The notes beneath the pieces are model-generated. The model was given only the letters and a program-made list of their open reading frames with translations. It ran no database searches and was not told where the DNA came from. Shown here one piece after another: positions 50,753 to 64,000 of a stretch of 64,000 nucleotides of DNA (position 1 is the stretch's first letter; the number at the start of each line of letters is the position of its first letter). Source of the stretch: Rudaea sp. (GTDB lineage: Bacteria; Pseudomonadota; Gammaproteobacteria; Xanthomonadales; Rhodanobacteraceae); assembly GCA_050737915.1 (NCBI GenBank), contig JBOHYL010000019.1, positions 6,927 through 70,926 on the forward strand. The letters are read 5' to 3'. The position numbers and the translations under genes are program-made.

Positions 50753-52000
50753 TCACGTTCGCGCAGCGTACTTGTGCGCAACATATTCCTCGACGATCGC
50801 TACGAACTCCTGCGCGATATGTTCGCCGCGCAAGGTGCGCGCCTTGAGTCCGTCGATGAAAACCGGTGCGGCTGGCGCCTCGCCGGTGCCGGGCAGGGAA
50901 ATACCAATGTCGGCGTGACGCGATTCGCCCGGACCGTTGACGACGCAGCCCATCACCGCCAGAGTGAGGTTCTCCACGCCATCGTACTTGACGCGCCATT
51001 CGGGCATTTTCGCGCGCACATGATCCTGTACGGTCTTGGCCAGCTCCTGGAACAGCGAACTGGTGGTGCGACCGCAACCCGGACACGCGGTGACCAACGG
51101 GGTGAACGCGCGCAGACCCATCGTCTGCAATAACTCCTGCGCCACGATCACCTCGCGCGTACGCGACTCGTCGGGCTCGGGGGTGAGCGAGATGCGGATG
51201 GTGTCGCCGATGCCTTCTTGCAGCAGCACGGCCAGGGCCGCGGTTGAGGCGACGATGCCTTTGCTGCCCAGACCCGCCTCAGTCAGACCCAAATGCAAGG
51301 CATAGTCGCAACGCGCGGCCAGGTCGCGGTAAACGGTGATCAATTCTTGCACTCCAGAAACCTTGCAAGACAACAAGATACGATCGCTAGTTAATCCTAA
51401 TTCTTCTGCCCGTGCAGCGGAATCCAGTGCGGATCGAATCAGCGCCTCGCGCGCCACGCGGGCGGCATCCCAGGGTGTGGCGCGAACGTGATTTTCGTCC
51501 ATCAGTTCCGCCAGCAGGGCTTGATCGAGCGAGCCCCAATTCGCGCCGATCCGCACCGGCTTGGCGTTCTCCAGCGCGATCTCGACGATCGCGGAAAACT
51601 GCGCATCGCGCTTCTTGCCAAAGCCGACATTGCCCGGATTGATGCGGTACTTGGCCAGGGCCCGCGCACAGGCAGGTTCGGCGGTGAGCAACTGGTGACC
51701 GTTGTAATGAAAATCGCCGATCAAGGGCACGCCCGCACCCATCATGTCCAGGCGCTCGCGGATACGGGGCACGGCAGCCGCCGCTGTGGGCGTATTCACG
51801 GTGATGCGTACCAGTTCCGATCCTGCCCGCGCCAGTTCGGCAACCTGTCGGGCTGTGGCCGCAACGTCGGCCGTATCGGTGTTGGTCATCGATTGCACGA
51901 CGACGGGCGCGCCGCCACCCACGCGCACACCGCCGACGGTGACGCCCACGCTGTGGCGCCGCGGCAGCGCCGCCGCTTGCGTTGGTTCCGAAGGAGTCAT
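50753..52000 (-). CDS. ispG: 4-hydroxy-3-methylbut-2-en-1-yl diphosphate synthase
   Basis: 415 aa, with [12 protein letters not shown] and the C-terminal Fe-S cysteines (ACPGCGRT...GCVVNGPGE). Confidence 0.95.
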
Positions 52001-52073
52001 TGCCGATCCAAGATTGCCTCTGCAGCAGCGGAAGGATTCGCCACGCTGCTGTCAATGCCGCAGGATAACTCGA

Positions 52074-53804
52074 TCAGGCGGGACTCTCCAGCCGCGCATC
52101 CGCATCGTCGTTGGCTGCCGGCACTGCATCAACCGCCTCGTCGGCAGTATCAGGCGCCACCATTTCCACGCGGAAATAGCCGCCCCCGTTGTCGCTGCAA
52201 CGCACACCGCGCAGGGACTCGATGGAAGGTTCCACCGGCCAGCTGAACGGATCGCCGGGCCGAGTCAACTCGATTTCGCCGCTGTCGCGGTCGAACAACG
52301 CCGGCACCACGATCACCGGCGTGCCGCCATTCGGGTCTTGCAACGCCAGCGCGCGCATCGCTGCGCGAGGCACGCCGTTGCTATCGAAACTGCGTACCGC
52401 CGCCGGCTGTGCCCGCCGTGCCAGCAATTCCACGCCGGCCTGCATGCTGCCATCGCCCTCGATCCGCAACCAGCGGATCGCGCCGATCATCCAGTCGCGC
52501 GATTCATCGTCGTCGGCCGGCGGCGCCAGACCGAGCAACTCGCCGACTTTCACGCGGATTCCATCAATACTGTCCCAAGCGAGCCGATAGCCGCCAAGAC
52601 TCTGGTCGAGCACGCGCGCCGGGATGCGGCGGATGCGTGGCCCTGCACTCGCATTTGTCCATGCGGCAGCGCGGTCGCTCTCGTGAAGGGTGATCGCCAC
52701 ACCGCGGGTCTTGACCAGAAACCCCTCGAAATCCATGCCTCCCGCCAACACGTAATGCAAATCGTGCAGGCCTATCACCGATTCGAGCATATGCCCTGCG
52801 GACAAGCGTTGCTGGACGCGATCACTGGCCACATCCCACACTCGCAGCAAGCGCGCAACGAAATCGATTGCCACCTTGATCGACGCGCCGCGCGCGCCGA
52901 ATTCGGTCGCCGTGGTACCCGGCGCCAGCAAGGCCAGATGGCCTTCCAGAAAACGCACCAACCCGCTGATTTCCAGTGCCCACAGGCCGGCGTCCGGCGT
53001 TTCGCGTTCTTCCGGCAAATAGCCAAGACTGCGATCGGAGTCAGTGCGGATGGCGATGGCGCCTGCAGGCGCGCGCCCTTCGCGCAGCTCGCAATGCGAG
53101 GCCCACAAGCCGGTCAACTGATAAATGTCGCTGTTCTCGCGCTGAGTGAAACGGTACGGATTCGACAGTGCGAACAGCAATGCATGGATGTAGGCCAGAC
53201 GCACGTTCGTCTGGCCAGCGCCACGCAGCGATTCGATCACGGGTTTTTCGTCAACGCCGACGGCAACCGCGAAACGGAACAGGTCGTGCAGGTTCTGCCA
53301 CGCGCCTGGCGGCGGCGCGCGGTAGCCAAGGTACGCCTGGTACAGAAAGCCGCCGCGATAGCCAAGCGCACGCACCAGCGCCAGCGCGGCTGCCTTTCCG
53401 CGCAGGAATGGTACCGCGCCGGCGGGAGCGCACATATCGTGCACCGCTGCGCAATAACCCAATGCAAGCTCGTGTTCGAAATCCTGCGCGAGCTGGCCGA
53501 GCTGCCGCTTCTGTGGCGGCAGCGGAAAACTTTCGGCGATTACCTGTCTGCCAAGCGAGGAGACGATCGTACCTACTGGCTCGCGCAGCATTTCCAGCGC
53601 ATCGATGCGCTGTTGCGGATCGATACGCAGCTGATTCATCTCGCGCAATGCGACGATCAGCAGGCGTGAGGTAGCCGCGGGATTGGCCAGTGGCAGTTGT
53701 CCCAGCCACTGGCGTAACGATTTCGCGTCGGTAGCGAACGAATTGCGGCGTGGAACATGCCGCTCGGGCAGTCCCTCAGCCAATCGTTCGAACAACGAAC
53801 TCAT
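52074..53804 (-). CDS. large hypothetical protein with a C-terminal PilZ-like motif (RRIPAR..DQSLGG)
   Basis: A clean 576-aa ORF with G+C-rich third positions like its neighbours. I recognise no enzymatic motifs. The motif is at codons 390-405 (nt 52590-52637). Confidence 0.55.
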   Translation of the reverse strand: MSSLFERLAEGLPERHVPRRNSFATDAKSLRQWLGQLPLANPAATSRLLIVALREMNQLRIDPQQRIDALEMLREPVGTIVSSLGRQVIAESFPLPPQKRQLGQLAQDFEHELALGYCAAVHDMCAPAGAVPFLRGKAAALALVRALGYRGGFLYQAYLGYRAPPPGAWQNLHDLFRFAVAVGVDEKPVIESLRGAGQTNVRLAYIHALLFALSNPYRFTQRENSDIYQLTGLWASHCELREGRAPAGAIAIRTDSDRSLGYLPEERETPDAGLWALEISGLVRFLEGHLALLAPGTTATEFGARGASIKVAIDFVARLLRVWDVASDRVQQRLSAGHMLESVIGLHDLHYVLAGGMDFEGFLVKTRGVAITLHESDRAAAWTNASAGPRIRRIPARVLDQSLGGYRLAWDSIDGIRVKVGELLGLAPPADDDESRDWMIGAIRWLRIEGDGSMQAGVELLARRAQPAAVRSFDSNGVPRAAMRALALQDPNGGTPVIVVPALFDRDSGEIELTRPGDPFSWPVEPSIESLRGVRCSDNGGGYFRVEMVAPDTADEAVDAVPAANDDADARLESPA

Positions 53805-53850
53805 TGTCAGACCCCTGTCATCTGCGGCGCCAGTATACTCCTCCGCCGCT

Positions 53851-55812
53851 TCAGGCGCCCCGCAATGCCCGTGTCAGCACGCGCCGTAAAATGCGCTCGG
53901 CAACGCCTCGCGGCCGGGCCAGGCCCATGCGCGCAAGCAGCGGCTCGTCCTGTGCACGTGGCGATCCTCGCCAAAGCGCTCCGACGCTGAAAGCGGCCAG
54001 GCGCGGCCTGCTCGTCGCCAGCGCCTGCAAGCGCTGCAACGCCGGCAGCAATGCCAATTCCACCGCGTCGAAATCGCTGCCGAAGGGAAACCGCGGAAAC
54101 CGATCGCGCTGGGGCGCCAGCGCAGCCGCCAGTCGCTCCGGAGTGTTGCGCCGCCACGCTGCCGGCAATACAAAATTCCGATGCAGTTTGCCGCTGGCTT
54201 TCGCCTGCGTCGCCAGTTCGTCGACGCAGCGCGCATCAGCGATCGCGAGCATGGCGACAATGCATTCTTCGTCGGATTTGCCGCGCAGGTCGGCGATGCC
54301 ATATTCGGTGATGTAGATATCGCGCAGATGGCGCGGAATCGTGACCTGACCGTAGTTCCAGCGAATGTTCGAGTGCAATTTGCCGCCGCTGCGCCGGGTG
54401 CTGCGCAACAGCAGGATCGAACGTCCGCCGGCGAGCGCATGCGCCATCGCCACGAAGTTGTACTGGCCGCCGACGCCGCTGACAACCTGGCCGTCTTCGA
54501 GCGTATCGGAAACGGCCGCACCGAGCAGGGTCGCCATCATGCAGGTGTTGAAAAATCGCGCGTCGCGGTGCTGAAGGGCATTCAGCGTCGCGTGCTCGCC
54601 GTAGAGTTGGTTGATGTCCGACACGCGCGTCATCGACAGCCCGTCGAAATCTGCGCCGCGCAGATCGCGCAACCATGTGTAGAAATCTTTCGAACCCAGA
54701 TAGAACGCACCGCGCAGGTAGCGCCCATCGCTGCGCCGCGAAACATCCACGCTGCGGCCCAGCGCCAGAGCTTTTTCGACGTCAAGATCGTCGAACACGC
54801 GGCGTTTGAGAATTCCCGCACGCGCCAAATGCATGAATCCGTCCATCACCATTTCACTGGCGCCATACACGCCGTGCGCGAACGGATCGAGCCCACCGCA
54901 ATTGTCGGGGCCACTGGCATGGCCAAGCGCCATCAGTGCCGCGCGATAGTCTGCGTTATGCACATGCCGCAGCAAAAGTGCATGTACCAACGCGTCGGAC
55001 AGTACGCCGATACCGATCTGCAAGGTGCCGCCATCGCGCACCAGGCTACTGGCGTGCAGCCCGAGCGCGTATTCGGCGATATCGACTTGGGCGCGCGGCA
55101 GCGCAAATAGCGTGTGCGCGGAAGCCGGATCGTCCAGCACAATGTCGAAGAATGCTGCGTCCGTTTCTGCTTCGTTGCCGATGTACGGCAAGTCCGGGTG
55201 AATCACGCCGACTACCAGCGGTCGCGGCGCACCGATCGCAGCCATGCGCTCGAGCAGATCCGCGCTAACATCCGGATTGCAGGCCAGGCTGTAACGCCGT
55301 TGCGCGCCCTGCCCGCGTGCCGCAATCAACTGCGCGACCGCGTTGATGCCAATGCCGGCCAGATCGCGCGCCACATGCGTATAGTTGAGGCTGGCGTAGT
55401 CGCGCTGCGATTGTGCCACGCCGAGCATCGCACCGGATTGCAGATAAAACTCGTGCACACGGATATTGGCCGGCAGCGCATTCGCATGCTGTGCCGCGAC
55501 CCAGGCCAGATCAGGGTAGTCCTTGCCGAAATTCCGTTCGAGAAACGGCGCGAGAAAGCGCCGTTCCAGATCACTCTTCGGTGTGGGCCGCGCCAGCGAC
55601 AAGGCGGTATAGATATCCAGCTTCAGCGCCGGATCGCGCGCCGCCTGCGCATAGATCGCGTTGAGCAGCACGTTCGGCTTGCCCAACCCCAGCGGCGTGG
55701 CCAGACGCAGGGTCCCGCGCGCATGCGCGAGGATGCGCGCCAGGCAGGTGGAGGTGTCGCTGAGCAGTTCCGGCATGTCGCCATCATCGCAGATCGTGCC
55801 GGATACTTGCAC
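53851..55812 (-). CDS. acetyl-CoA hydrolase/transferase family protein
   Basis: 653 aa. It has ATPLGLGKPN...IYTALSL in the N-terminal part and GQVVSGVGGQYNFVAMAH in the C-terminal part. These are typical of the acetyl-CoA hydrolase/4-hydroxybutyrate CoA-transferase superfamily. The start may be ATG 55776 (MPELL...). Confidence 0.8.
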   Translation of the reverse strand: MQVSGTICDDGDMPELLSDTSTCLARILAHARGTLRLATPLGLGKPNVLLNAIYAQAARDPALKLDIYTALSLARPTPKSDLERRFLAPFLERNFGKDYPDLAWVAAQHANALPANIRVHEFYLQSGAMLGVAQSQRDYASLNYTHVARDLAGIGINAVAQLIAARGQGAQRRYSLACNPDVSADLLERMAAIGAPRPLVVGVIHPDLPYIGNEAETDAAFFDIVLDDPASAHTLFALPRAQVDIAEYALGLHASSLVRDGGTLQIGIGVLSDALVHALLLRHVHNADYRAALMALGHASGPDNCGGLDPFAHGVYGASEMVMDGFMHLARAGILKRRVFDDLDVEKALALGRSVDVSRRSDGRYLRGAFYLGSKDFYTWLRDLRGADFDGLSMTRVSDINQLYGEHATLNALQHRDARFFNTCMMATLLGAAVSDTLEDGQVVSGVGGQYNFVAMAHALAGGRSILLLRSTRRSGGKLHSNIRWNYGQVTIPRHLRDIYITEYGIADLRGKSDEECIVAMLAIADARCVDELATQAKASGKLHRNFVLPAAWRRNTPERLAAALAPQRDRFPRFPFGSDFDAVELALLPALQRLQALATSRPRLAAFSVGALWRGSPRAQDEPLLARMGLARPRGVAERILRRVLTRALRGA

Positions 55813-55854: not shown

Positions 55855-58266
55855 ATGACCGAACGTTTCAAGCTCGCCATCGTCGGTTCCGGGCCGGGCG
55901 GGCTATCGGCCGCCGCGCGTGCGGCCGAGCGCGGCGAATCGCATGTGCTGCTCGAAGCCGAAGCACATCTGTCGAACACGATCTTCCGCTACCAAAAGGG
56001 CAAGTTCGTGATGGACGAGCCGGGCATCCTGCCACTGCGTGCGCCGGTGCCGTTCAAGGCCGGCTCGCGCGAAACGATTCTGGATGCCTGGGACGAAGCG
56101 GCCAAGCGCCTGAAGATCAACACTCGCTACAAGCACGAAGTCCGCGCGATCAAGGCCAGCCCGGGCGGCGGCTTCGAGATCCAATGCACGAATGGCCAGA
56201 GCCTCGCCGCCGAGCGCGTGGTGATGGGGATCGGCTTGCAGGGCAATATCCGCAAACTCGGCTGCCCCGGCGAAGATCTGCCATTGGTGCAGTACCAGCT
56301 GGACGACCCGGACGAATACGAAGGCGAAACCATCGCCGTGGTCGGCGCCGGCGATGCCGCCATCGAAAACGCGGTGGCGCTGGCGAAACAAAACAACGTC
56401 GTCATCGTCAATCGCAAGGACGAATTCGCGCGCGCCAAAAAAGGCAATGAGTCGGCGATTCTGAAGGCGATCGAGGATGGCACCATTGAGTGCTATTACG
56501 ACTCCGCGCCCGAGCGCGTGGATGCGCTCAGCGTCGGCCGCAAGAAAGGCCGACTTATCCTCAGCACGAAAAATGGCAAGGCACAGATCCTGCTCGACCG
56601 CGTGATCGCGCGCCTCGGCGCCACCGCGCCGCGCGGTTTTGTCGAAGCCTGCGGTGTGGTGTTTCCGAACAAGGACCCGGCCGCGGTGCCGGCGATCAGC
56701 TCGCAATACGAATCCAACGTCAAGGGCCTGTACATTGTCGGCGCGCTCGGCGGCTATCCGCTGATCAAGCAGGCGATGAATCAGGGCTACGAGGTCGTCG
56801 AATACATCCTCGGCAACAAAGTCGAGCCTGCCGACGAGCCGTTGCTCAAGGCCAAGTTTGCGGCGATGCCCGGCTTCCGCAACGTCGACGAGGCGTTGGC
56901 GTGCGTGCAGAAGAACGTGCGTCTGCTCGCCCACATCACGCCGTTGCAATTACGCGAGTTCATGCTCGATTCGGACATCCGCACGCCCAAGCCGGGCGAG
57001 ACGATCTTCGCGCGCAATGATTACACGAATACGTTTTTCAGCATCGTCGAAGGCGAAGTGCAGGTCGTGATTGACGCGGCCACGAACCAGCGCATCAGCC
57101 TCAAACGCGGCGAATTTTTCGGCGAGATGAGTCTGATCTCCGGGCGCCGACGCTCGGCCACAATCCTTGCCGGATCGAACTGCGTGCTGATCGAGACACC
57201 GCGGCGCTCGATGAACCGCCTGATCAACTCGGTTGAGGCGGTCAAGCGCGAGATCGATCAGGTGTTCATCCTGCGTGCGATCCAGTCGCGTTTTGCGCCC
57301 GAGGCTTCGGCCGAACAACTCGCCGAAGTCGTTTCGGCTTCGCGTCTGGAGCGTTTCAAGGCCGGCGACGTGCTGTTCAACGAGGGCGAAATCGGCGACT
57401 GCCTGCATCTGGTGCGCGTGGGCTCGCTGACCATCTCGCGCAACATCGGTGGCAAGGATGTGGTGCTCAGCTACGTGCCGGCGGGCAATTACGTCGGCGA
57501 GATGGCGCTGATGGGAGAATCGCGGCGCTCGGCCACAGCACGCGCGGCGATCGCCACCGAAACGGTGCGCCTGGATGGCGACAGTTTCAAGAAACTGGTC
57601 AACCGCATTCCGGTGCTGCGCCTGCGCCTGCAATCCGAATATCGCCAGCGCACGGCGGCGAATCTGGCGATGCAGTCTATGCCGGGGGGCGGCGACATCA
57701 TCTCGTTCCTGCTTGCCCAAGGCGCCGGCGAAGCCACGGATATCCTGTTGATTGACGAATCGCTGTGCGTGCGTTGCGACAATTGCGAGAAAGCCTGCGC
57801 CGAAACCCACGGCGGCACCTCGCGGCTGGACCGCGAAGCCGGCCCAACCTTCGCCAACGTGCACGTGCCGACCTCATGCCGGCATTGCGAGCATCCGCAC
57901 TGTATGAAGGATTGCCCGCCTGACGCGATCCACCGCGCGCCCAATGGTGAGGTGTTCATCGCCGACAACTGCATCGGTTGCGGCAACTGCGAGCGCAACT
58001 GTCCGTATGGCGTAATCCACATGGCCTACAAGCCACCGAAGAAACCCGGTCTGATCCAATGGCTGCTGTTCGGTCGCGGCGACGGCCCCGGCGAAGCGCC
58101 GCACGATCCGCACGACCATGCTGCAGGCGAGGTCAAGAAGGCGGTCAAGTGCGACATGTGCAAGGATCTTTCCGGTGGCCCGGCCTGTGTGCGCTCGTGT
58201 CCGACCGGTGCGGCGATCCGCATCTCGCCTGAGGAGTTTCCCGCCTACGCGCAGTCGCGGCGCTGA
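55855..58266 (+). CDS. multidomain redox protein: FAD/NAD(P) pyridine-nucleotide oxidoreductase + 2 cyclic-nucleotide-binding domains + 4x[4Fe-4S] ferredoxin module
   Basis: The real start is MTERFKLAIVGSGPGGLSAAA (ATG 55855, GGGAGGG upstream). The track ORF from 55114 is a 5' extension. Dinucleotide folds are IVGSGPGG and VVGAGDAA. The cNMP phosphate-binding cassettes are FGEMSLISGRRRSAT (57118-57162) and VGEMALMGESRRSAT (57493-57537). Cys clusters are CVRCDNCEKAC, CRHCEHPHCMKDCP, CIGCGNCERNCP and CDMCKD...CVRSCP (57766-58203). Confidence 0.85.
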   Translation: MTERFKLAIVGSGPGGLSAAARAAERGESHVLLEAEAHLSNTIFRYQKGKFVMDEPGILPLRAPVPFKAGSRETILDAWDEAAKRLKINTRYKHEVRAIKASPGGGFEIQCTNGQSLAAERVVMGIGLQGNIRKLGCPGEDLPLVQYQLDDPDEYEGETIAVVGAGDAAIENAVALAKQNNVVIVNRKDEFARAKKGNESAILKAIEDGTIECYYDSAPERVDALSVGRKKGRLILSTKNGKAQILLDRVIARLGATAPRGFVEACGVVFPNKDPAAVPAISSQYESNVKGLYIVGALGGYPLIKQAMNQGYEVVEYILGNKVEPADEPLLKAKFAAMPGFRNVDEALACVQKNVRLLAHITPLQLREFMLDSDIRTPKPGETIFARNDYTNTFFSIVEGEVQVVIDAATNQRISLKRGEFFGEMSLISGRRRSATILAGSNCVLIETPRRSMNRLINSVEAVKREIDQVFILRAIQSRFAPEASAEQLAEVVSASRLERFKAGDVLFNEGEIGDCLHLVRVGSLTISRNIGGKDVVLSYVPAGNYVGEMALMGESRRSATARAAIATETVRLDGDSFKKLVNRIPVLRLRLQSEYRQRTAANLAMQSMPGGGDIISFLLAQGAGEATDILLIDESLCVRCDNCEKACAETHGGTSRLDREAGPTFANVHVPTSCRHCEHPHCMKDCPPDAIHRAPNGEVFIADNCIGCGNCERNCPYGVIHMAYKPPKKPGLIQWLLFGRGDGPGEAPHDPHDHAAGEVKKAVKCDMCKDLSGGPACVRSCPTGAAIRISPEEFPAYAQSRR

Positions 58267-58275
58267 CGGCCAGCC

Positions 58276-59172
58276 ATGCACGATTCCATTCTTACCCACG
58301 CCAAATCGCGCTATTTGTGGACTGCGCTGGCGCTCTCGCTCGCGTCGCTGGTCGCCTACATCGTCCACGATCCGGGCGGCCCGCCCAACGGCGGCACCTG
58401 GCTGGGCTACACGCTCGGCACGATCGGTGCGCTGCTGATCGTGTGGCTGATGCTGTTCGGCATGCGCAAGCGCCGCTACCGCGACAGTGCCGGCACGCTG
58501 CGCGGTTGGTTGTCCGCGCACATCTACCTTGGCACCTCGCTCATCCTGATCGTACTGCTGCACAGCGGTTTCCAGTTCGGCTGGAACGTGCACACATTGG
58601 CGTTCGTGCTCATGCTGGTGGTGATCTTCTCCGGATTTTTCGGCGTCTACGTGTATCTGCGCTATCCGAACCTGATGACACGCAACCGCGAAAGCGCGAC
58701 GCGCGATGCCATGCTCGAGGAAGTCGCTGAAATCGACCAGAATGCACTCGCGCTGGCCGACGGCATCGACCCGAAAATCCACGCCATCGTGCTGCGCTCG
58801 ATCCAGAACACGCGGCTGGGCGGCGGCGTATGGACGCAATTGCGCGCGCACGACGGCTCGGATCTGGCGCTGGAGTCGTTGCACCGGAACATTGCCGAAC
58901 GCGAAAACAAGCAGGAAATGAAAACCTCCGAAATGCCGACCATGTTCGCGATGGTCGATTTTCTCGCCGGCCGCGCTACCGACAAACAGGGCGAGGCGCT
59001 GCGCAAGCTGATCGACCTGATCTCACGCAAGAAGGGACTGGCGACGAAAGTCGCGCGCGACATGCAATATCAGGCGATGATGGAAATCTGGCTGTATATC
59101 CACGTGCCGCTATCGTTCGCTTTGCTGGCGGCGCTGATCGCGCACATCGTTTCTTCTTTCTTCTATTGGTAG
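58276..59172 (+). CDS. integral membrane protein, 5 predicted TM helices with conserved-looking histidines (possible b-type haem carrier)
   Basis: 298 aa. Hydrophobic segments are WTALALSLASLVAYIV, LGYTLGTIGALLIVWLMLFG, LSAHIYLGTSLILIVLLHSGF, VHTLAFVLMLVVIFSGFFGVYVYL and IWLYIHVPLSFALLAALIAHIVSSFFY. A charged loop of about 110 aa precedes the last helix. It starts 9 nt after the upstream stop. Confidence 0.7.
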   Translation: MHDSILTHAKSRYLWTALALSLASLVAYIVHDPGGPPNGGTWLGYTLGTIGALLIVWLMLFGMRKRRYRDSAGTLRGWLSAHIYLGTSLILIVLLHSGFQFGWNVHTLAFVLMLVVIFSGFFGVYVYLRYPNLMTRNRESATRDAMLEEVAEIDQNALALADGIDPKIHAIVLRSIQNTRLGGGVWTQLRAHDGSDLALESLHRNIAERENKQEMKTSEMPTMFAMVDFLAGRATDKQGEALRKLIDLISRKKGLATKVARDMQYQAMMEIWLYIHVPLSFALLAALIAHIVSSFFYW

Positions 59173-59179
59173 GTCGAGA

Positions 59180-60859
59180 ATGCGCTGGCTGATCCGCCGA
59201 GTGCTGAAAAAAGGCAAGGGCGCCATTTCCTACGAGGAAGACGTCCATTACGGCGACGTGCTCACCATCGGGCGCGCTGCCGATCAGGCGATCTTTCTGC
59301 CCGACATGCGCGCCGCACTCAACCACGCGCGCATCACTCTGCTTTCCGGCGGCCAGTACAAGATCGAATCACTGATCCTGGCCGGCATCCGCGTTGATGG
59401 CCAGATCACCTACACCACGACCGCGGGTGCCGGAGCTGCGGTGGAAATCGGCAATACGCGCCTGACCCTCCTCGCCGCGCCGCAGGACTACGACGGCGCC
59501 GTGGAAGTAAGCACACTCGACAAGTCCGAGCAGCAAGCCGAGCTGGCGCGCGCGGCGAAACCCACGCGACTGGCCCAGACCGGGCTGAGCAAACGCCGGC
59601 CGGCGTGGATCCTGTTCTTTGGAATTCTTTTGTTCTGCCTCGCCCTGCCGATGCTCGGCCACTTCATTCCGGGATTCGGCCATATGCTGCGGAGCGTGCC
59701 GCTGCTGCCGAGTACGCAAAGCTGGAACCCCGGCCCGCTTGACGCCGCGCACCGTTTCTTCGCCAGCGACTGCACGAAGTGTCACCAGCACGCCTTTCTG
59801 ACCGTGCGCGACGATGCCTGCCTGGTCTGTCACGTCAACACCGCCGCGCACGCGGACCCTGCCAAGTTCAATCTTCCGCAATTGGGCAACGCGCAGTGCC
59901 GCAGTTGCCATCAGGATCACCAGGGGCCGAGTGGCATGATCCGCACCGACCAACGCCTGTGTGCGGATTGCCATGCCGACCTGAAGGCACGCACCAAGGG
60001 CGTCAGCACCTTCGCCGACGTCAGCGATTTCGGCACGGCGCATCCGCAGTTCAAGGTCAGCCTGCCCGGCTGGGACGCCGCCGGCAACTTCGCCCCGCAG
60101 CGCGTGACCTGGGCCGCCGACCTGAAGGAAAATTCCGGGCTCAAGTTCAACCACGAAAAGCACCTGAAACCCGATGGGCTGAACACCCCGAACGGTCACC
60201 GCGTGCTCACCTGTGCGACGTGCCACACGCCCGATGCCGGCGGCGCGAAGATGCGTCCGATTCAGTTCAAGAACATGTGCCACGACTGCCACAAGCTCGG
60301 CTTCGACACGCTCGCACCCGGGCGCGAAGTGCCGCACGGCAAGGTCGCCGCAGTCGCGTATACGTTGAGCGAGTATTACGCCAAGGTGGCGCTGGAAGGC
60401 GGCTATCTGGATGCACGCTCGCCCGACATCGTGCAGCAGCGGCGCCGCCCCGGCGCGCCGCCACTGTCACAACAGCAGCAGCAGGAAGCACTCGCCTGGG
60501 CACGCCAGCGCGCGCGCGAGGCCACCGACAGCCTGTTCACCGGCAAGGCGTGCAGTACGTGCCACAAGGTCACGCCGCCGCGCACCGACGACGACACCTG
60601 GCATGTGGCACCGGTACGCGTGTCTGGCGTGTGGTACGCGGACGCGAAATTTACCCACGCCAAGCACACCACGATCCAGTGCAAGGATTGCCACGACGGC
60701 GCGCCGAAGTCCACGCAATCGGCCGATCTGCTCATTCCCGGCATCGCCAACTGCCGAACTTGCCACGCTGGCGCCAAGGCGAAGGATAAGGTCGCCACGA
60801 CCTGCATCGCCTGCCACGCGTACCATCAATCGGCGACGCTGAAGATGGGTACATTATGA
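59180..60859 (+). CDS. FHA-like domain / single TM / decahaem c-type cytochrome
   Basis: 559 aa. The N-terminus ...GDVLTIGRAADQAIFLPDMRAALNHARITLLSGGQYKIESL..AGIRVDGQ follows the FHA pattern (GR...D..L.D......H..I). The TM helix is PAWILFFGILLFCLALPMLGHF. Ten CXXCH motifs follow: CTKCH, CLVCH, CRSCH, CADCH, CATCH, CHDCH, CSTCH, CKDCH, CRTCH and CIACH (nt 59771-60817). It starts 7 nt after the upstream stop. Confidence 0.85.
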   Translation: MRWLIRRVLKKGKGAISYEEDVHYGDVLTIGRAADQAIFLPDMRAALNHARITLLSGGQYKIESLILAGIRVDGQITYTTTAGAGAAVEIGNTRLTLLAAPQDYDGAVEVSTLDKSEQQAELARAAKPTRLAQTGLSKRRPAWILFFGILLFCLALPMLGHFIPGFGHMLRSVPLLPSTQSWNPGPLDAAHRFFASDCTKCHQHAFLTVRDDACLVCHVNTAAHADPAKFNLPQLGNAQCRSCHQDHQGPSGMIRTDQRLCADCHADLKARTKGVSTFADVSDFGTAHPQFKVSLPGWDAAGNFAPQRVTWAADLKENSGLKFNHEKHLKPDGLNTPNGHRVLTCATCHTPDAGGAKMRPIQFKNMCHDCHKLGFDTLAPGREVPHGKVAAVAYTLSEYYAKVALEGGYLDARSPDIVQQRRRPGAPPLSQQQQQEALAWARQRAREATDSLFTGKACSTCHKVTPPRTDDDTWHVAPVRVSGVWYADAKFTHAKHTTIQCKDCHDGAPKSTQSADLLIPGIANCRTCHAGAKAKDKVATTCIACHAYHQSATLKMGTL

Positions 60860-60955: not shown

Positions 60956-62950
60956 ATGCGGAACAAACGGCATGTCTGGCTGGCACTGGCGACGGCATTG
61001 ACGCTTGCCGCGTGTGGCGGCGGCAGCAATTCCGGCGATCCGGAAGGCACCGCTCCGCCGCCGCAATCCACGCCGGATTCGGGCTGCAACGGTTCATGCG
61101 CCAATGCGCAGACGTACCTGACACAGAGCGACGTGCAGACCGTGATCGCGCAGGCGGCGGCCGAAGCGCAAGCGCAAGGCAAACCCGCGGTGATCGCCGT
61201 GGTCGACCGTGTCGGCAATGTGCTTGCGGTCTATCGCATGACCGGCGCGCCAGACACCATGACAATTACCTCTGACCGCGGCGTGGTCGGCGGACTGGAA
61301 GGCCTTGCCGTTCCGAGCGAGCTGGCCGCGATCGCCAAGGCCGTGACCGGCGCGTATCTGTCCTCCGAAGGCAACGCGTTTTCTACCCGCACGGCCAGCC
61401 AGATCGTGCAGGAACACTTCAATCCGGGCGTGCTCGGCACACCGGCCGGCCCGCTGTTCGGCGTGCAGTTTTCACAACTGCCTTGCTCGGATTTGGCCAC
61501 GCATTTTTCTGCAGGAACCGGAGCAGGCCCTCATAACTCACCGCTCGGCTTGTCCGCCGATCCGGGCGGCTTCCCCTTGTATGAAAACGGAACGCCGGTC
61601 GGTGGCGTCGGTGTCGCCGCTGACGGCATCTACGGCCTCGATCCGAATGTGATGGACAAGGACCGCAATATCGACGAGCTGATCGCCATGGCCGCCACCT
61701 ACGGTTTCGGTGCGCCCACCGACCGCCGCGCGGATACGATCACGGCCGGTGGTATCACCTTGCGCTTCAGCGATGTCGATTACGCCGACTTGGCCACGCA
61801 TCCGCAAAACGCGCCGCCGTATCCCACTTTGACCGGCGCACTGATGACGGCGCCCGGCTATTTCGACGGCAGTGCGATTCTGGCCGGAACCGCATTCGGC
61901 CAGACCGATTCCGGCATACGTGCGGACACGCAGTTCTACTCGGGTCTGGATGCGTTCGTGCTCGACGACGGTCATGGCAACAACCGCTATCCACCCAGGG
62001 CAGGTACCGACGGCGCCGATGCACTGACCGCCGACGAAGCGCAGATTCTCGTGCAACAGGCGCTGATGGTGGCCAATCACGCACGCGCACAGATTCGTAA
62101 TCCGCTCGGCAGTCAGGCGCGCGTGTCTGTTTCGATTGTGGATACCAACGGCGTCGCCCTTGCGGTCGCACGCACGCGCGACGCGCCGATCTTCGGCACC
62201 GACGTGTCGCTGCAGAAGGCGCGCACGGCGGCATTCAATTCCGGCAGCTATGCGGCCGGCGTGCTGCAGGGTCTGGCACCAGCCAACTATTTCGCCGACA
62301 GCATCGACGTCGCCAACAAGAAAGTCATCTTCACTACGGTCGCGCAAAGCAATATCGGCGATTACGTGGCTGCGGTGCGCGCCTTCCTCGGCCTGCCCGA
62401 CGCGCTCGAGGGCGGTTACGCGTTCACCGACCGTGCCGGCGGCAACCTGTCGCGCCCGTTCTTTCCGGACGGTGTGGATGGCAACCCGAACGGACCGTTC
62501 AGCCATCTGTTGGCGCAATGGAGCCCGTTCCAGGAAGGCTTGCAACTCGATCTTGTCTACAACGCGGTCGCACTGAATCTGGTCGGCTATCTGCAAGCCG
62601 AAGGCTTTGCGATCAGTGCCGACAACGTGCCCGCCGCGACGCAATTCTGCACGGCCAGTCCGCGCCTTGCCAACGGCATACAAGTGTTCCCCGGCAGCGC
62701 GCCGATCTATCGCGGCAGCAAACTGGTTGGCGGCATCGGTGCCTCCGGCGATGGCGTGGACCAGGACGACATGGTCAGTTTTCTCGGCCTGTACAACGCC
62801 GGCGTCGCACTCGGCGGCGCAATCGGCAATGCGCCGCCGGCGATACGCGCCGACAATCTGGCGCCGCAGGGCGTACATCTGCGCTATGTCGAATGTCCCC
62901 AGGCACCGTTCCTGGACAGCAACGCCGACAATGTTTGCGATGGGAAGTGA
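60956..62950 (+). CDS. lipoprotein with two GlcG/DUF336 (HbpS-like, haem-binding/degrading family) domains
   Basis: The real start is MRNKRHVWLALATALTLAAC (lipobox LAAC; ATG 60956, GGGGAGAGGAG upstream). Domain 1 is LTQSDVQTVIAQAAAEAQAQGKPAVIAVVDRVGNVLAVYRM...GGFPLYENGTPVGGVGVAADG. Domain 2 is LTADEAQILVQQALMVANHAR...VSVSIVDTNGVALAVARTRDAPIFGTDVSLQKARTAA...IYRGSKLVGGIGASGDGVDQDD. The track ORF from 60875 is a 5' extension. Confidence 0.75.
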   Translation: MRNKRHVWLALATALTLAACGGGSNSGDPEGTAPPPQSTPDSGCNGSCANAQTYLTQSDVQTVIAQAAAEAQAQGKPAVIAVVDRVGNVLAVYRMTGAPDTMTITSDRGVVGGLEGLAVPSELAAIAKAVTGAYLSSEGNAFSTRTASQIVQEHFNPGVLGTPAGPLFGVQFSQLPCSDLATHFSAGTGAGPHNSPLGLSADPGGFPLYENGTPVGGVGVAADGIYGLDPNVMDKDRNIDELIAMAATYGFGAPTDRRADTITAGGITLRFSDVDYADLATHPQNAPPYPTLTGALMTAPGYFDGSAILAGTAFGQTDSGIRADTQFYSGLDAFVLDDGHGNNRYPPRAGTDGADALTADEAQILVQQALMVANHARAQIRNPLGSQARVSVSIVDTNGVALAVARTRDAPIFGTDVSLQKARTAAFNSGSYAAGVLQGLAPANYFADSIDVANKKVIFTTVAQSNIGDYVAAVRAFLGLPDALEGGYAFTDRAGGNLSRPFFPDGVDGNPNGPFSHLLAQWSPFQEGLQLDLVYNAVALNLVGYLQAEGFAISADNVPAATQFCTASPRLANGIQVFPGSAPIYRGSKLVGGIGASGDGVDQDDMVSFLGLYNAGVALGGAIGNAPPAIRADNLAPQGVHLRYVECPQAPFLDSNADNVCDGK

Positions 62951-62951
62951 C

Positions 62952-64000
62952 ATGAGTATTCGACTTCGCTCGCGCATCCTCCCCGCCGGCATCGCGCTTG
63001 CCGGGATTGCTGCATTTTCTATAAGTCCACAAATACACGCGCAAACAGCCAGCACCATGCCGCATGTGTTGGAACTGTTCGGCGTGCTGCCGGCACCAAC
63101 CTACGATCCGTCCAAATCCGAAATACCGCGGCGTCGCCCGGGGCATCCGTACGAACCACTGCCGGAATTCAAGGTGATCAATCCCGATGGCGTGCCGCCC
63201 GCGCCGGTGGATCAGGCCGGGGCGTTCCTGCCGGTGCCGGATCGCTGGCGCATCATGGAAACCCTGGGTTTCAAGTTTCCGTGGTACGACCCGTACAACC
63301 AGAATATCTACAAAGGCGACAAGCCGATCGACGGCAAGGATCATTTCCTCGTCCTGACCGGCATCTCCGACACCTTTATCGAGCCGCGCAGCGTGCCCAC
63401 ACCGGTCGCGCCGCAGAATACCGGGCATGCCGGCGAATTGGGCGTGTTCGGTGGCATCAATCAACTGCTGCTCGCGCAGAACTTCATCGCCAGCGTGGAT
63501 TATTACCACGGCGATACCACATTCAAGCCGCCCGACACCGAATACAAGGCGACGCTCGCGTTCAACTACAACCGCGTCAACGTGCGCGAAGTGCGTGCCC
63601 TGCAGATTGACCCGCGACTTGGCACCAGCCGCGACGATGGCTTCATCGGCGTGCAGGAACTATGGTTCGACAAGCATCTGCGCGACATCGATTCACGCTA
63701 CGATTTCGACAGCTTGCGCATCGGCATCCAGCCATTCTCGACCGATTTCCGCGGTTTCCTGTTCCAGGATTCGCAACCGGGTATCCGCCTGTTCGGCGAC
63801 CGTGACAACAACCGCTGGCAGTACAACTTTGCGTATTTCCGGCGCCTGGAAAAAGATGTCAATTCCGGTTTGAACGACGTGACCCGCGCACCGCGCCACG
63901 ACGATGTCCTCGTTGCCAACCTGTATCGCCAGGATTGGCCGTGGCTGGGCTATACCTCGCAGGCGACAATCGTCTACAACCACAATGACGACAGCACGAT
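62952..64000 (+). CDS. secreted protein of unknown function (signal peptide; possibly outer-membrane); truncated by the window end
   Basis: Absent from the ORF track because it has no stop. My translation from ATG 62952, 1 nt after the upstream TGA, gives MSIRLRSRILPAGIALAGIAAFSISPQIHAQTAST...PDRWRIMETLGFKFPWYDPYNQNIYKGDKPIDGKDHFLVLTGISDTFIEPR...RWQYNFAYFRRLEKDVNSGLND... The frame is open through position 64000. Confidence 0.6.
   Translation, partial: MSIRLRSRILPAGIALAGIAAFSISPQIHAQTASTMPHVLELFGVLPAPTYDPSKSEIPRRRPGHPYEPLPEFKVINPDGVPPAPVDQAGAFLPVPDRWRIMETLGFKFPWYDPYNQNIYKGDKPIDGKDHFLVLTGISDTFIEPRSVPTPVAPQNTGHAGELGVFGGINQLLLAQNFIASVDYYHGDTTFKPPDTEYKATLAFNYNRVNVREVRALQIDPRLGTSRDDGFIGVQELWFDKHLRDIDSRYDFDSLRIGIQPFSTDFRGFLFQDSQPGIRLFGDRDNNRWQYNFAYFRRLEKDVNSGLNDVTRAPRHDDVLVANLYRQDWPWLGYTSQATIVYNHNDDST

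Follow-up and report, generated by a model that had tools for sequence, protein, structure and literature searches.

Cytochromes that join a forkhead-associated (FHA) domain to several c-type haems have been noticed before yet never characterised. Hoover et al. (2023; PMC10734462) listed, without comment, a 'Forkhead-associated protein' with 10 CXXCH motifs as cluster 403, found in 27 Gallionellaceae genomes. A 2026 preprint described a protein of Ferrigenium straubiae, 'NHC', with a cytosolic FHA domain and the same two neighbours as the protein studied here, and left its function open; its authors stated that the combination of an FHA domain with multiple haems had not been reported earlier (bioRxiv 10.64898/2026.01.22.701106). 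A preprint of 2023/24 described the ptdABCDEFG operon, encoding a putative porin-cytochrome complex whose function is not known (bioRxiv 10.1101/2023.11.21.568154). Our literature search returned no further paper combining these features, and no FHA or Ptd terms were found in the supplements of the ptd preprint. Here we analyse a 64,000-nucleotide stretch of DNA from Rudaea sp. (GenBank assembly GCA_050737915.1, contig JBOHYL010000019.1, positions 6,927 to 70,926), hereafter the window, in which g3, third in a closely spaced operon, encodes a protein with an N-terminal FHA fold, a single membrane helix and a predicted decahaem cytochrome domain. The two genes before it encode a flavo-iron-sulfur protein (g1) and an inner-membrane protein with five transmembrane helices (g2).

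The NHC protein and the proteins of Gallionellaceae cluster 403 resemble g3 in having a cytosolic FHA domain, one transmembrane helix and 9–10 periplasmic haems, and in adjoining a five-transmembrane-helix protein and a [4Fe-4S] protein. The Ferrigenium NHC differs in its reported nine haems and in lying beside nirK and an SHP-like gene, whereas g3 has ten haem motifs and is followed by genes for an HbpS-like lipoprotein and a putative barrel, with a decahaem/LVIVD gene after. The order g1-g2-g3 is also that of PtdE-PtdF-PtdG, described as a protein with cyclic nucleotide monophosphate (cNMP)-binding and 4Fe-4S domains, a 'ferric reductase-like' transmembrane protein and a decahaem protein, and the ptd operon has an adjacent tetrahaem gene, as do three of the loci related to the window (L081, L082 and L084). 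By contrast, the ptd paper says nothing of an FHA domain and treats PtdG as simply periplasmic; its authors list a separate FAD/NAD(P) oxidoreductase, PtdC, and report two Fe-S clusters, whereas g1 is a fusion with four cysteine groups; and the pentahaem protein PtdA of the ptd operon is absent here.

A regular-expression scan of g3 identified ten CXXCH motifs, at residues 198, 214, 240, 261, 345, 367, 458, 501, 525 and 542, with the first at nucleotides 59771–59785 and the final one ending at nucleotide 60817. Shuffling the protein 20,000 times gave at most three CXXCH motifs, and none in 96% of the shuffles. Ten further histidines (H191, H224, H247, H288, H325, H328, H386, H493, H496 and H549) are probable distal haem ligands, judging from their conservation. 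Across 42 sequences with 30–48% identity, all ten CXXCH motifs and all ten additional histidines are invariant, which fits the prediction of ten bis-histidine haems in g3. The protein scored above the Pfam gathering cut-offs for Cytochrome_C7 (46.4, cut-off 24.8), Cytochrom_c3_2 (39.5, cut-off 25), Paired_CXXCH_1 (37.2, cut-off 20.6) and Cytochrom_CIII (30.6, cut-off 22.9), and from the motifs and these matches we predict that g3 is a multihaem c-type cytochrome of the class III, c7/c3-like kind. We observed no match of g3 to NapC/NirT (PF03264) at E-values up to 1 and none to the DmsE family; the NCBIfam NrfH model was not among the matches of g3, and the OmcA/MtrC model TIGR03507 scored 16.1 bits against a cut-off of 209.3. 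Membership of g3 in the OmcA/MtrC, HmcA and NrfH families was rejected because the NCBIfam models were absent or far below their cut-offs.

The haem domain is preceded by a single hydrophobic helix at residues ~139–166, with a Kyte-Doolittle peak of 2.36; AlphaFold2 placed a helix at residues 139–162. Lysine and arginine account for six of the 21 residues before the helix and one of the 24 residues after it. The pair K138-R139 is invariant among close homologues, and in wider alignments R139 is still invariant and an LSKR consensus is held. No signal peptide was found at the N-terminus of g3, where the folded domain begins at residue 2. Covalent attachment of haem to CXXCH motifs by the Ccm system takes place on the periplasmic side of the membrane. 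Because g3 is without a signal peptide, has its basic residues before the sole transmembrane helix and must have its CXXCH motifs on the periplasmic side, we infer that the N-terminal domain is cytoplasmic and the haem domain periplasmic; an FHA domain in the periplasm was rejected on the same grounds.

We next considered the N-terminal ~110 residues. For g3 alone, the evidence for an FHA domain was marginal: PF00498 matched residues 29–76 with 22.1 bits (gathering cut-off 20.7; E = 2e-4), and the best match among sequences in the PDB was GarA, with an E-value of 0.003. Evidence from the family settles the identity of the domain. A profile of 29 N-termini with 22–82% identity matched the FHA domains of GarA, OdhI, Rv1747, FhaA and EmbR with E-values from 1.4e-11 (GarA) to 6e-6, and six solved FHA proteins besides GarA matched at E < 1e-3 (OdhI, Rv1747, FhaA, EmbR, Mb1858 and a GGDEF-domain protein). 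The AlphaFold2 model of residues 1–175 had a mean predicted local distance difference test score (pLDDT) of 90, with values of at least 95 over residues 1–110; it comprised 11 strands, followed by a linker helix at residues 115–126 and then the transmembrane helix. All of the top 50 Foldseek matches in the PDB were FHA domains, with E-values down to 3e-6 and target-normalised template-modelling scores of 0.70–0.77. The best fold matches were GarA, OdhI and EmbR rather than YscD; weak matches to PF16697 (Yop-YscD_cpl) occurred in the g3 family. Based on the profile searches and the structural model, we conclude that this part of g3 is a genuine FHA fold.

The same domain departs from the canonical FHA sequence at the site that reads phosphothreonine. 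Taking the contact positions to be the standard FHA set from the literature on Rad53 and GarA, we aligned the SxxH site of GarA to A46-L47-N48-H49 of g3, so that the canonical serine is replaced by A46, the residue next to it by L47, the threonine or serine of the β6-β7 loop by I66 and the asparagine by A68. The Gly-Arg pair of the β3-β4 loop (G31-R32) and the structural histidine of the β4-β5 loop (H49) are kept. Hence four of the five canonical phosphopeptide contacts are apolar in g3, and mostly so across the family, with R32 the sole contact kept. Among 137 full-length representatives with 30–63% identity, G31 is conserved in 99%, R32 in 92% and H49 in 80%; the serine position is alanine in 53% and serine in 9 of the 137, and the asparagine position is asparagine in 5 of the 137. 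Some distant members retain the canonical serine (RVSLHH). In a wider alignment the loops of the binding face contain the most conserved residues of the FHA domain, with G31 and R32 invariant and L40, D42, R44, L47 and A50 conserved in at least 90% of sequences. Because these loops are conserved while the contacts to phosphate and peptide are apolar, we read the face as functional but probably no longer a classical reader of phosphothreonine. The ten motifs, the single helix before them, an FHA head, its cytoplasmic placement and the replacement of the serine before the histidine had all been proposed in an earlier note on this DNA, and each is supported by the results above.

An exhaustive phmmer search of 1.84 billion representative sequences (clusters at 50% identity) returned 3013 matches to g3 at E ≤ 1e-3 and 757 at E ≤ 1e-30. 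The best 150 relatives were nearly all full length, and 144 of them had exactly 10 CXXCH motifs. The FHA region is retained throughout the family, with a mean pairwise identity of 29% as compared to 39% for the haem domain. Among apparent relatives of 415–470 amino acids without an FHA domain, most of those inspected were likely to be N-terminally truncated gene calls, which start in the linker, lack an initial methionine or have fewer motifs. There was no clear FHA-less variant among these short relatives, so they provide no test of whether the FHA domain and g1 occur together. Named hosts were Rudaea, Dokdonella, Tahibacter, Pseudomarimonas, Chiayiivirga, Ahniellaceae, Granulosicoccaceae, Rhodospirillaceae, Zavarzinia and Candidatus Tectomicrobia, and public annotations call the relatives 'cytochrome c3 family protein' or 'FHA domain-containing protein'. 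The nearest relative of the window was a metagenome-assembled genome (MAG) of an uncultured gammaproteobacterium (95%), followed by Rudaea MAGs. A scan of a genome collection, which used patterns from a close alignment, returned Lysobacterales only; because of this choice of patterns, the membership of Gallionellaceae rests on the literature.

We then examined the genes next to g3. The gaps between g1, g2, g3, g4 and g5 are 9, 7, about 95 and 1 nucleotides, respectively. In 82 related loci, g1 was found in 72 (some of the others lack the upstream flank), g2 in 76 and g4 after g3 in 69. In six distant contexts, where g3 identity is 32–40%, g2 and g3 were adjacent in all six, with gaps of 7–25 nucleotides or a short overlap, and g1 lay just upstream (3–130 nucleotides) in five; in the remaining one (L085), the contig ends within the upstream gene, which has no Pfam record. 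Thus, g1-g2-g3 is a strictly linked module that is conserved down to 32% identity. The most conserved gene of the module is g1, with 51–61% identity where g3 has 32–37%. Between the window and L083, one of the distant loci, identity was 51% for g1, 41% for g2, 32% for g3, 59% for g4 and 55% for g5; by these comparisons, the FHA-decahaem protein is diverging far more quickly than its cluster neighbours. Upstream of the module, on the opposite strand, are three long open reading frames (ORFs), the first of which resembles IspG/GcpE by eye; they are not conserved beside the module in distant loci.

The g1 protein matched Pfam families Pyr_redox_3 (7.6e-29), cNMP_binding (5.9e-36, in two stretches) and Fer4_11 and related families. 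Its FAD/NAD(P)H domain is thioredoxin-reductase-like but without the CxxC motif, and has GxGxxG motifs at residues 16 and 169, numbered on an 808-residue translation from nucleotide 55840 (subtract 5 to count from M1 at 55855). Both cNMP-binding domains have intact phosphate-binding cassettes (GEMSL..RRSA and GEMAL..RRSA). The C-terminal part has four cysteine groups for four [4Fe-4S] clusters and aligned with E. coli FdnH by BLASTP (9e-15), with all four cysteine groups in register. The presence of an FAD/NAD(P)H domain without redox CxxC together with FdnH-like cysteine groups suggests that g1 could serve as a self-contained donor arm. We placed the start of g1 at the ATG at 55855, on the basis of homologues, the Rossmann motif and a ribosome-binding site (gggaggg) just before it. 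The longest ORF, from the GTG at 55114 (1050 aa), was rejected; its extra 247 codons are spurious and overlap the region of the divergent upstream gene.

The g2 protein has five invariant histidines (H82, H96, H106, H276 and H290) in an alignment of 12 sequences down to 41% identity. Four of these form pairs 14 residues apart, H82/H96 in the third transmembrane helix and H276/H290 in the fifth. The cytoplasmic loops contain 6 and 21 lysines and arginines and the periplasmic loops none; the positive-inside rule puts the first histidine of each pair (H82 and H276) close to the cytoplasmic face and the second (H96 and H290) close to the periplasmic face. Histidine pairs at matching depth in two transmembrane helices are the classical pattern of a transmembrane dihaem b protein. 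PF01292 (Ni_hydr_CYTB) matched 19 of 20 family members below threshold, over the last helix (best E-value 1e-4), and DUF4405 matched five of the 20. The g2-equivalent PtdF was independently called a 'ferric reductase-like' transmembrane protein (bioRxiv 10.1101/2023.11.21.568154). On the strength of the histidine pattern, g2 likely holds two b haems, and we refer to it as a putative dihaem b-type cytochrome. In the cytoplasmic insert, T135 and T179 are invariant among 20 homologues; when more distant members are included, T135 remains invariant and T179 is conserved in at least 90%. We also observed that H31, at the periplasmic end of the first transmembrane helix, is nearly invariant (lost in L083 only), and that the invariant H106 lies at the periplasmic end of the fourth; possible roles for these two histidines are binding of a third haem or contact with the first c haem of g3.

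Downstream of g3, g4 encodes a predicted periplasmic lipoprotein with repeated HbpS/GlcG-like domains (Pfam HbpS-like, 4e-24, four stretches) and weak PDB matches to EfgA, HbpS and PduO-type proteins; it may bind haem or another tetrapyrrole. It also lies downstream of g3 in L083, L084 and L085. The g5 protein has 52–55% identity to its counterparts in L083 and L084. Homologues of g5 end in aromatic C-termini (..VFNY or ..LTY) and gave one weak NCBIfam porin match (DESULF_POR1, E = 3.5e-4); no Pfam match was found for them, and g5 had no match among PDB sequences. From these features, g5 is probably an outer-membrane β-barrel. In related loci g5 is followed by g6, a protein of ~1255 amino acids with ten CXXCH motifs, weak ExtM and MtrC-domain matches and an LVIVD repeat that we take to form a β-propeller. 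Together, g4-g5-g6 look like an outer module of the porin-cytochrome type. A gene for a c554-like tetrahaem protein lies beside g1 in L081, L082 and L084 and after g6 in L083; it was not found in the window, and was present in one of 80 Lysobacterales loci (L062). This gene is probably ptdD of the ptd operon. All coordinates are collected in Table 1.

Table 1. Positions of the genes and domains discussed, in the window and in related loci.
Feature	Sequence	Coordinates	Strand	Length or residues	Remarks
g1, flavo-Fe-S protein, predicted cytoplasmic	window	55855–58266	+	803 aa	Pfam, motifs, FdnH alignment
g2, inner-membrane protein, putative dihaem b	window	58276–59172	+	298 aa	5 transmembrane helices; ~135-aa cytoplasmic helical insert
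g3, predicted bitopic FHA-transmembrane-decahaem cytochrome c	window	59180–60859	+	559 aa	
g3 FHA-fold domain, predicted cytoplasmic	window	59180–59515	+	aa 1–112	AlphaFold2, Foldseek, family profile
g3 single transmembrane helix, predicted N-in/C-out	window	59594–59677	+	aa 139–166	hydropathy, AlphaFold2, K/R bias
g3 decahaem domain, predicted periplasmic	window	59747–60829	+		ten CXXCH (nt 59771–60817) and ten invariant extra His
g4, lipoprotein with repeated HbpS/GlcG-like domains	window	60956–62950	+		signal MRNKRH...LTLAAC, lipobox; Pfam
g5, 5' part (gene runs past window end), secreted	window	62952–64000	+	~580 aa	signal peptide ..IHA/QTA
g4–g6 region	window	60956–64000 (g4 and 5' part of g5)			
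g4–g6 region	L083	6741–14703			
g4–g6 region	L084	9834–15598			
g4–g6 region	L085	4275–11770			
c554-like tetrahaem gene beside g1	L081	10219–11568	-	449–575 aa (range)	4 CXXCH
c554-like tetrahaem gene beside g1	L082	10458–11810	-		4 CXXCH
c554-like tetrahaem gene beside g1	L084	2742–4469	-		4 CXXCH
c554-like tetrahaem gene after g6	L083	14049–14703			
Three long upstream ORFs	window	50753–55812	-	415, 576, 653 aa	first resembles IspG/GcpE by eye

The reading that we tentatively prefer, with somewhat less than even confidence, is that g3 is an inner-membrane-anchored periplasmic decahaem wire in an NAD(P)H-fed, cNMP-gated export chain formed by g1, g2 and g3, with the FHA domain as a docking foot. 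Cytoplasmic NAD(P)H would reduce the FAD of g1, and electrons would then pass through its four FdnH-like [4Fe-4S] clusters. Two b haems at the invariant histidine pairs of g2 would carry the electrons across the membrane to the ten bis-histidine c haems of g3, which would pass them on to the HbpS-like lipoprotein g4, the putative barrel g5 and the decahaem/β-propeller protein g6. Gating of this flow would fall to the two cNMP-binding domains of g1. The FHA domain would use its conserved loop face to hold soluble g1, or the cytoplasmic insert of g2, at the membrane subunits, and this docking would probably be phospho-independent. A docking foot is the most economical role for the FHA domain because g1 is soluble and must abut g2, the FHA domain is tethered by a linker of ~25 residues to the transmembrane helix, and its binding face is conserved but non-canonical. 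Outward flow is expected because both the membrane potential and NAD(P)H, with its low redox potential, would favour movement from the cytoplasm to the periplasm, and this direction also fits the downstream genes, whose products include a large multihaem protein and a putative barrel. We consider doubtful the more far-reaching version of this reading, in which the locus encodes a self-contained cNMP-gated chain that takes electrons from NAD(P)H by way of FAD, four Fe-S clusters, two b haems and the decahaem wire to a barrel/cytochrome complex in the outer membrane, without passing through the quinone pool; the dehydrogenase would be recruited by the FHA domain as a structural adaptor, phospho-independent or phospho-switchable, which would make this the first FHA domain in a respiratory or extracellular-electron-transfer complex and the chain a common one among ordinary aerobic Proteobacteria of soil and water.

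Of the elements of this chain, the domain architecture, the FHA fold, the number and conservation of haem motifs, the three-gene linkage, the FdnH homology of g1 and the degenerate phosphothreonine pocket are observed; the topology of g3, the haem b of g2, the direction of flow and the identity of the FHA ligand are deduced, and the docking partner is a guess. Several observations weigh against an export chain with a docking foot. Extracellular electron transfer is not a known trait of Rudaea, Dokdonella or Tahibacter. For g2, the PF01292 score was 20.6 against a cut-off of 30.1, and hhalign comparisons with FdnI, MsrQ and YodB were not significant (E-values of 0.31, 0.07 and 0.03; probability < 2%). 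The sole stretch aligned with FdnI, which speaks in favour of haem b, paired g2 residues 273–292, which include H276 and H290, with residues 152–171 of FdnI, the segment with the two haem-ligating histidines of FdnI. The AlphaFold2 model of g2 was poor (pLDDT 59, predicted template-modelling score 0.40), from a shallow alignment of sequences with 79–91% identity plus one with 50%; Foldseek with this poor model gave no match at E ≤ 1e-3 and was discounted as uninformative, and the g2 profile found nothing relevant among PDB sequences. The Ferrigenium authors reported no redox motif in the five-helix equivalent of g2 (bioRxiv 10.64898/2026.01.22.701106). The correspondences of g1-g2-g3 to PtdEFG, which is probable, and of g3 to the NHC kind were drawn by matching architecture, gene order and published descriptions. 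Finally, with R32 conserved in 92% of representatives and the serine present in a minority, phospho-binding may persist.

The last point leads to the possibility, which we regard as unlikely, that the FHA domain is a phospho-switch, binding phosphothreonine on g1, g2 or another protein so that a Hanks-type kinase encoded elsewhere switches periplasmic electron transfer. The fold is genuine, R32 and H49 are largely conserved, distant members with the canonical RVSLHH have clear precomputed Pfam FHA matches, and the conserved T135 and T179 of the g2 insert would be available as targets; against these stand a pocket made of A46, L47, I66 and A68, the rarity of the serine and asparagine across the family, and the genomic surroundings. 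We observed no Hanks-type kinase catalytic-loop motif in the window and 85 related loci (1.07 Mb in total), and no kinase or phosphatase among the called genes of the six distant contexts; the conserved neighbours of g3 are redox proteins, not signalling proteins. The earlier note had proposed coupling to Ser/Thr-kinase signalling, or else phospho-dependent docking on a partner in the cluster. Given the degenerate contacts and this neighbourhood, the first proposal did not hold up well; from the second, docking within the cluster stays plausible, while its dependence on phosphorylation sits poorly with the phosphothreonine contacts. Kinase signalling is thus the weaker reading of the g3 FHA domain, and a docking foot is more likely than a kinase sensor.

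Two further explanations concern the path of the electrons rather than the FHA ligand. In one, g2 and g3 would oxidise quinol in the manner of CymA/NapC or of Geobacter CbcL/ImcH, while g1, instead of supplying the electrons, would have an accessory or regulatory part and the FHA domain would be a regulatory add-on; we judge this improbable, to about the same degree as the phospho-switch. In CbcL, a dihaem b domain of the PF01292 type is joined to a periplasmic domain with nine haems, and g2 plus g3 resemble a split CbcL, consistent with the weak PF01292 matches in g2. A link to the quinone pool was also proposed in the Ferrigenium preprint, by analogy with CymA and NrfH (bioRxiv 10.64898/2026.01.22.701106). 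However, g3 lacks any detectable NapC/NirT relation, the NrfH, OmcA/MtrC and HmcA models are likewise absent or far below their cut-offs, and g1 is the most conserved gene of the module; its predicted series of carriers, from an NAD(P)H site and FAD to the four Fe-S clusters of an FdnH-like domain, is complete and would make little sense unless g1 is a donor or acceptor arm. In the other explanation, electrons would flow inward: the decahaem wire would gather them from periplasmic or outer-membrane oxidases, for example during Fe(II) oxidation in Gallionellaceae, and deliver them to quinone or, via g2 and g1, to NAD(P)+. A redox chain is reversible in principle, the family is present in iron-oxidising Gallionellaceae (PMC10734462), and a role in connecting MtoA or Cyc2 with the inner membrane has been suggested for the Ferrigenium version (bioRxiv 10.64898/2026.01.22.701106). 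We nevertheless consider this the least probable of the explanations and very unlikely, since reduction of NAD(P)+ by high-potential donors would be strongly uphill, inward movement would oppose the membrane potential and no energy-coupling subunit appears to be encoded; moreover, the hosts are mostly Lysobacterales (Rudaea, Dokdonella and Tahibacter), with Rhodospirillaceae and Zavarzinia.

If the export chain with an FHA docking foot is correct, it would be a new electron route out of the cytoplasm, NOX- or MsrQ-like, fed by NAD(P)H and gated by cNMP, that ends in multihaem wires, and it would provide the first FHA domain to serve as an integral adaptor within a redox complex. Hundreds of sequence clusters (757 at E ≤ 1e-30) contain the protein, with hosts among the Gamma- and Alphaproteobacteria, Tectomicrobia and iron oxidisers. 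Experiments could address the hypothesis directly, since the genes are present in cultured bacteria, namely Dokdonella immobilis, Tahibacter aquaticus, T. soli, T. caeni and Pseudomarimonas species. The model is also relevant to two questions raised by recent preprints: what the ptd operon does in oxygen-deficient zones (bioRxiv 10.1101/2023.11.21.568154) and what role NHC has in nitrate-reducing Fe(II) oxidisers (bioRxiv 10.64898/2026.01.22.701106). To the published descriptions, our analysis adds the degenerate phosphothreonine pocket with its conserved loop face, the linkage of the three genes, the homology of g1 to FdnH with four predicted clusters, the histidine pairs of g2 and the extension to an outer module.

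The individual parts of g3 and its partners can be compared with better-studied systems. For the head domain, the inner-ring proteins of type III secretion systems (YscD/PrgH/EscD) share with g3 a bitopic arrangement of cytoplasmic FHA fold, one transmembrane helix and periplasmic domain. The FHA domains of these proteins lack the canonical phosphothreonine residues and serve as phospho-independent docking sites. They differ in the periplasmic part, which consists of ring-building motifs, whereas that of g3 is a multihaem cytochrome. The actinobacterial regulators GarA and OdhI are the nearest FHA sequences and structures to g3. GarA binds metabolic enzymes through the phosphate site of its FHA domain, with no need for phosphorylation of the target. 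In contrast to g3, GarA and OdhI are small and soluble, have an intact Ser/Asn pocket and are kinase substrates.

For the electron path, E. coli FdnH-FdnI resembles g1-g2 in that a subunit with four [4Fe-4S] clusters feeds a dihaem b subunit with two histidines 14 residues apart in one helix, although the similarity of g2 to FdnI is not significant (E = 0.31). Formate dehydrogenase-N differs in topology, which is inverted relative to the window, where the Fe-S arm is predicted to be cytoplasmic; it also reduces quinone and is without a c-type wire, an FHA domain or cNMP domains. The MsrQ-Fre system and NOX enzymes resemble the proposed chain in passing electrons from a cytoplasmic NAD(P)H flavoprotein through a transmembrane dihaem b protein to a periplasmic or outside acceptor, with quinone bypassed or optional; MsrQ has no detectable sequence relation to g2, and the chain proposed here would have an additional Fe-S relay and a decahaem wire. 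By analogy with these systems, the proposed chain would combine the Fe-S-to-haem-b transfer of formate dehydrogenase-N, in inverted orientation, with the NAD(P)H-driven supply of dihaem b seen in NOX and Fre-MsrQ and with the coupling of b haems to a multihaem c domain found in Geobacter CbcL.

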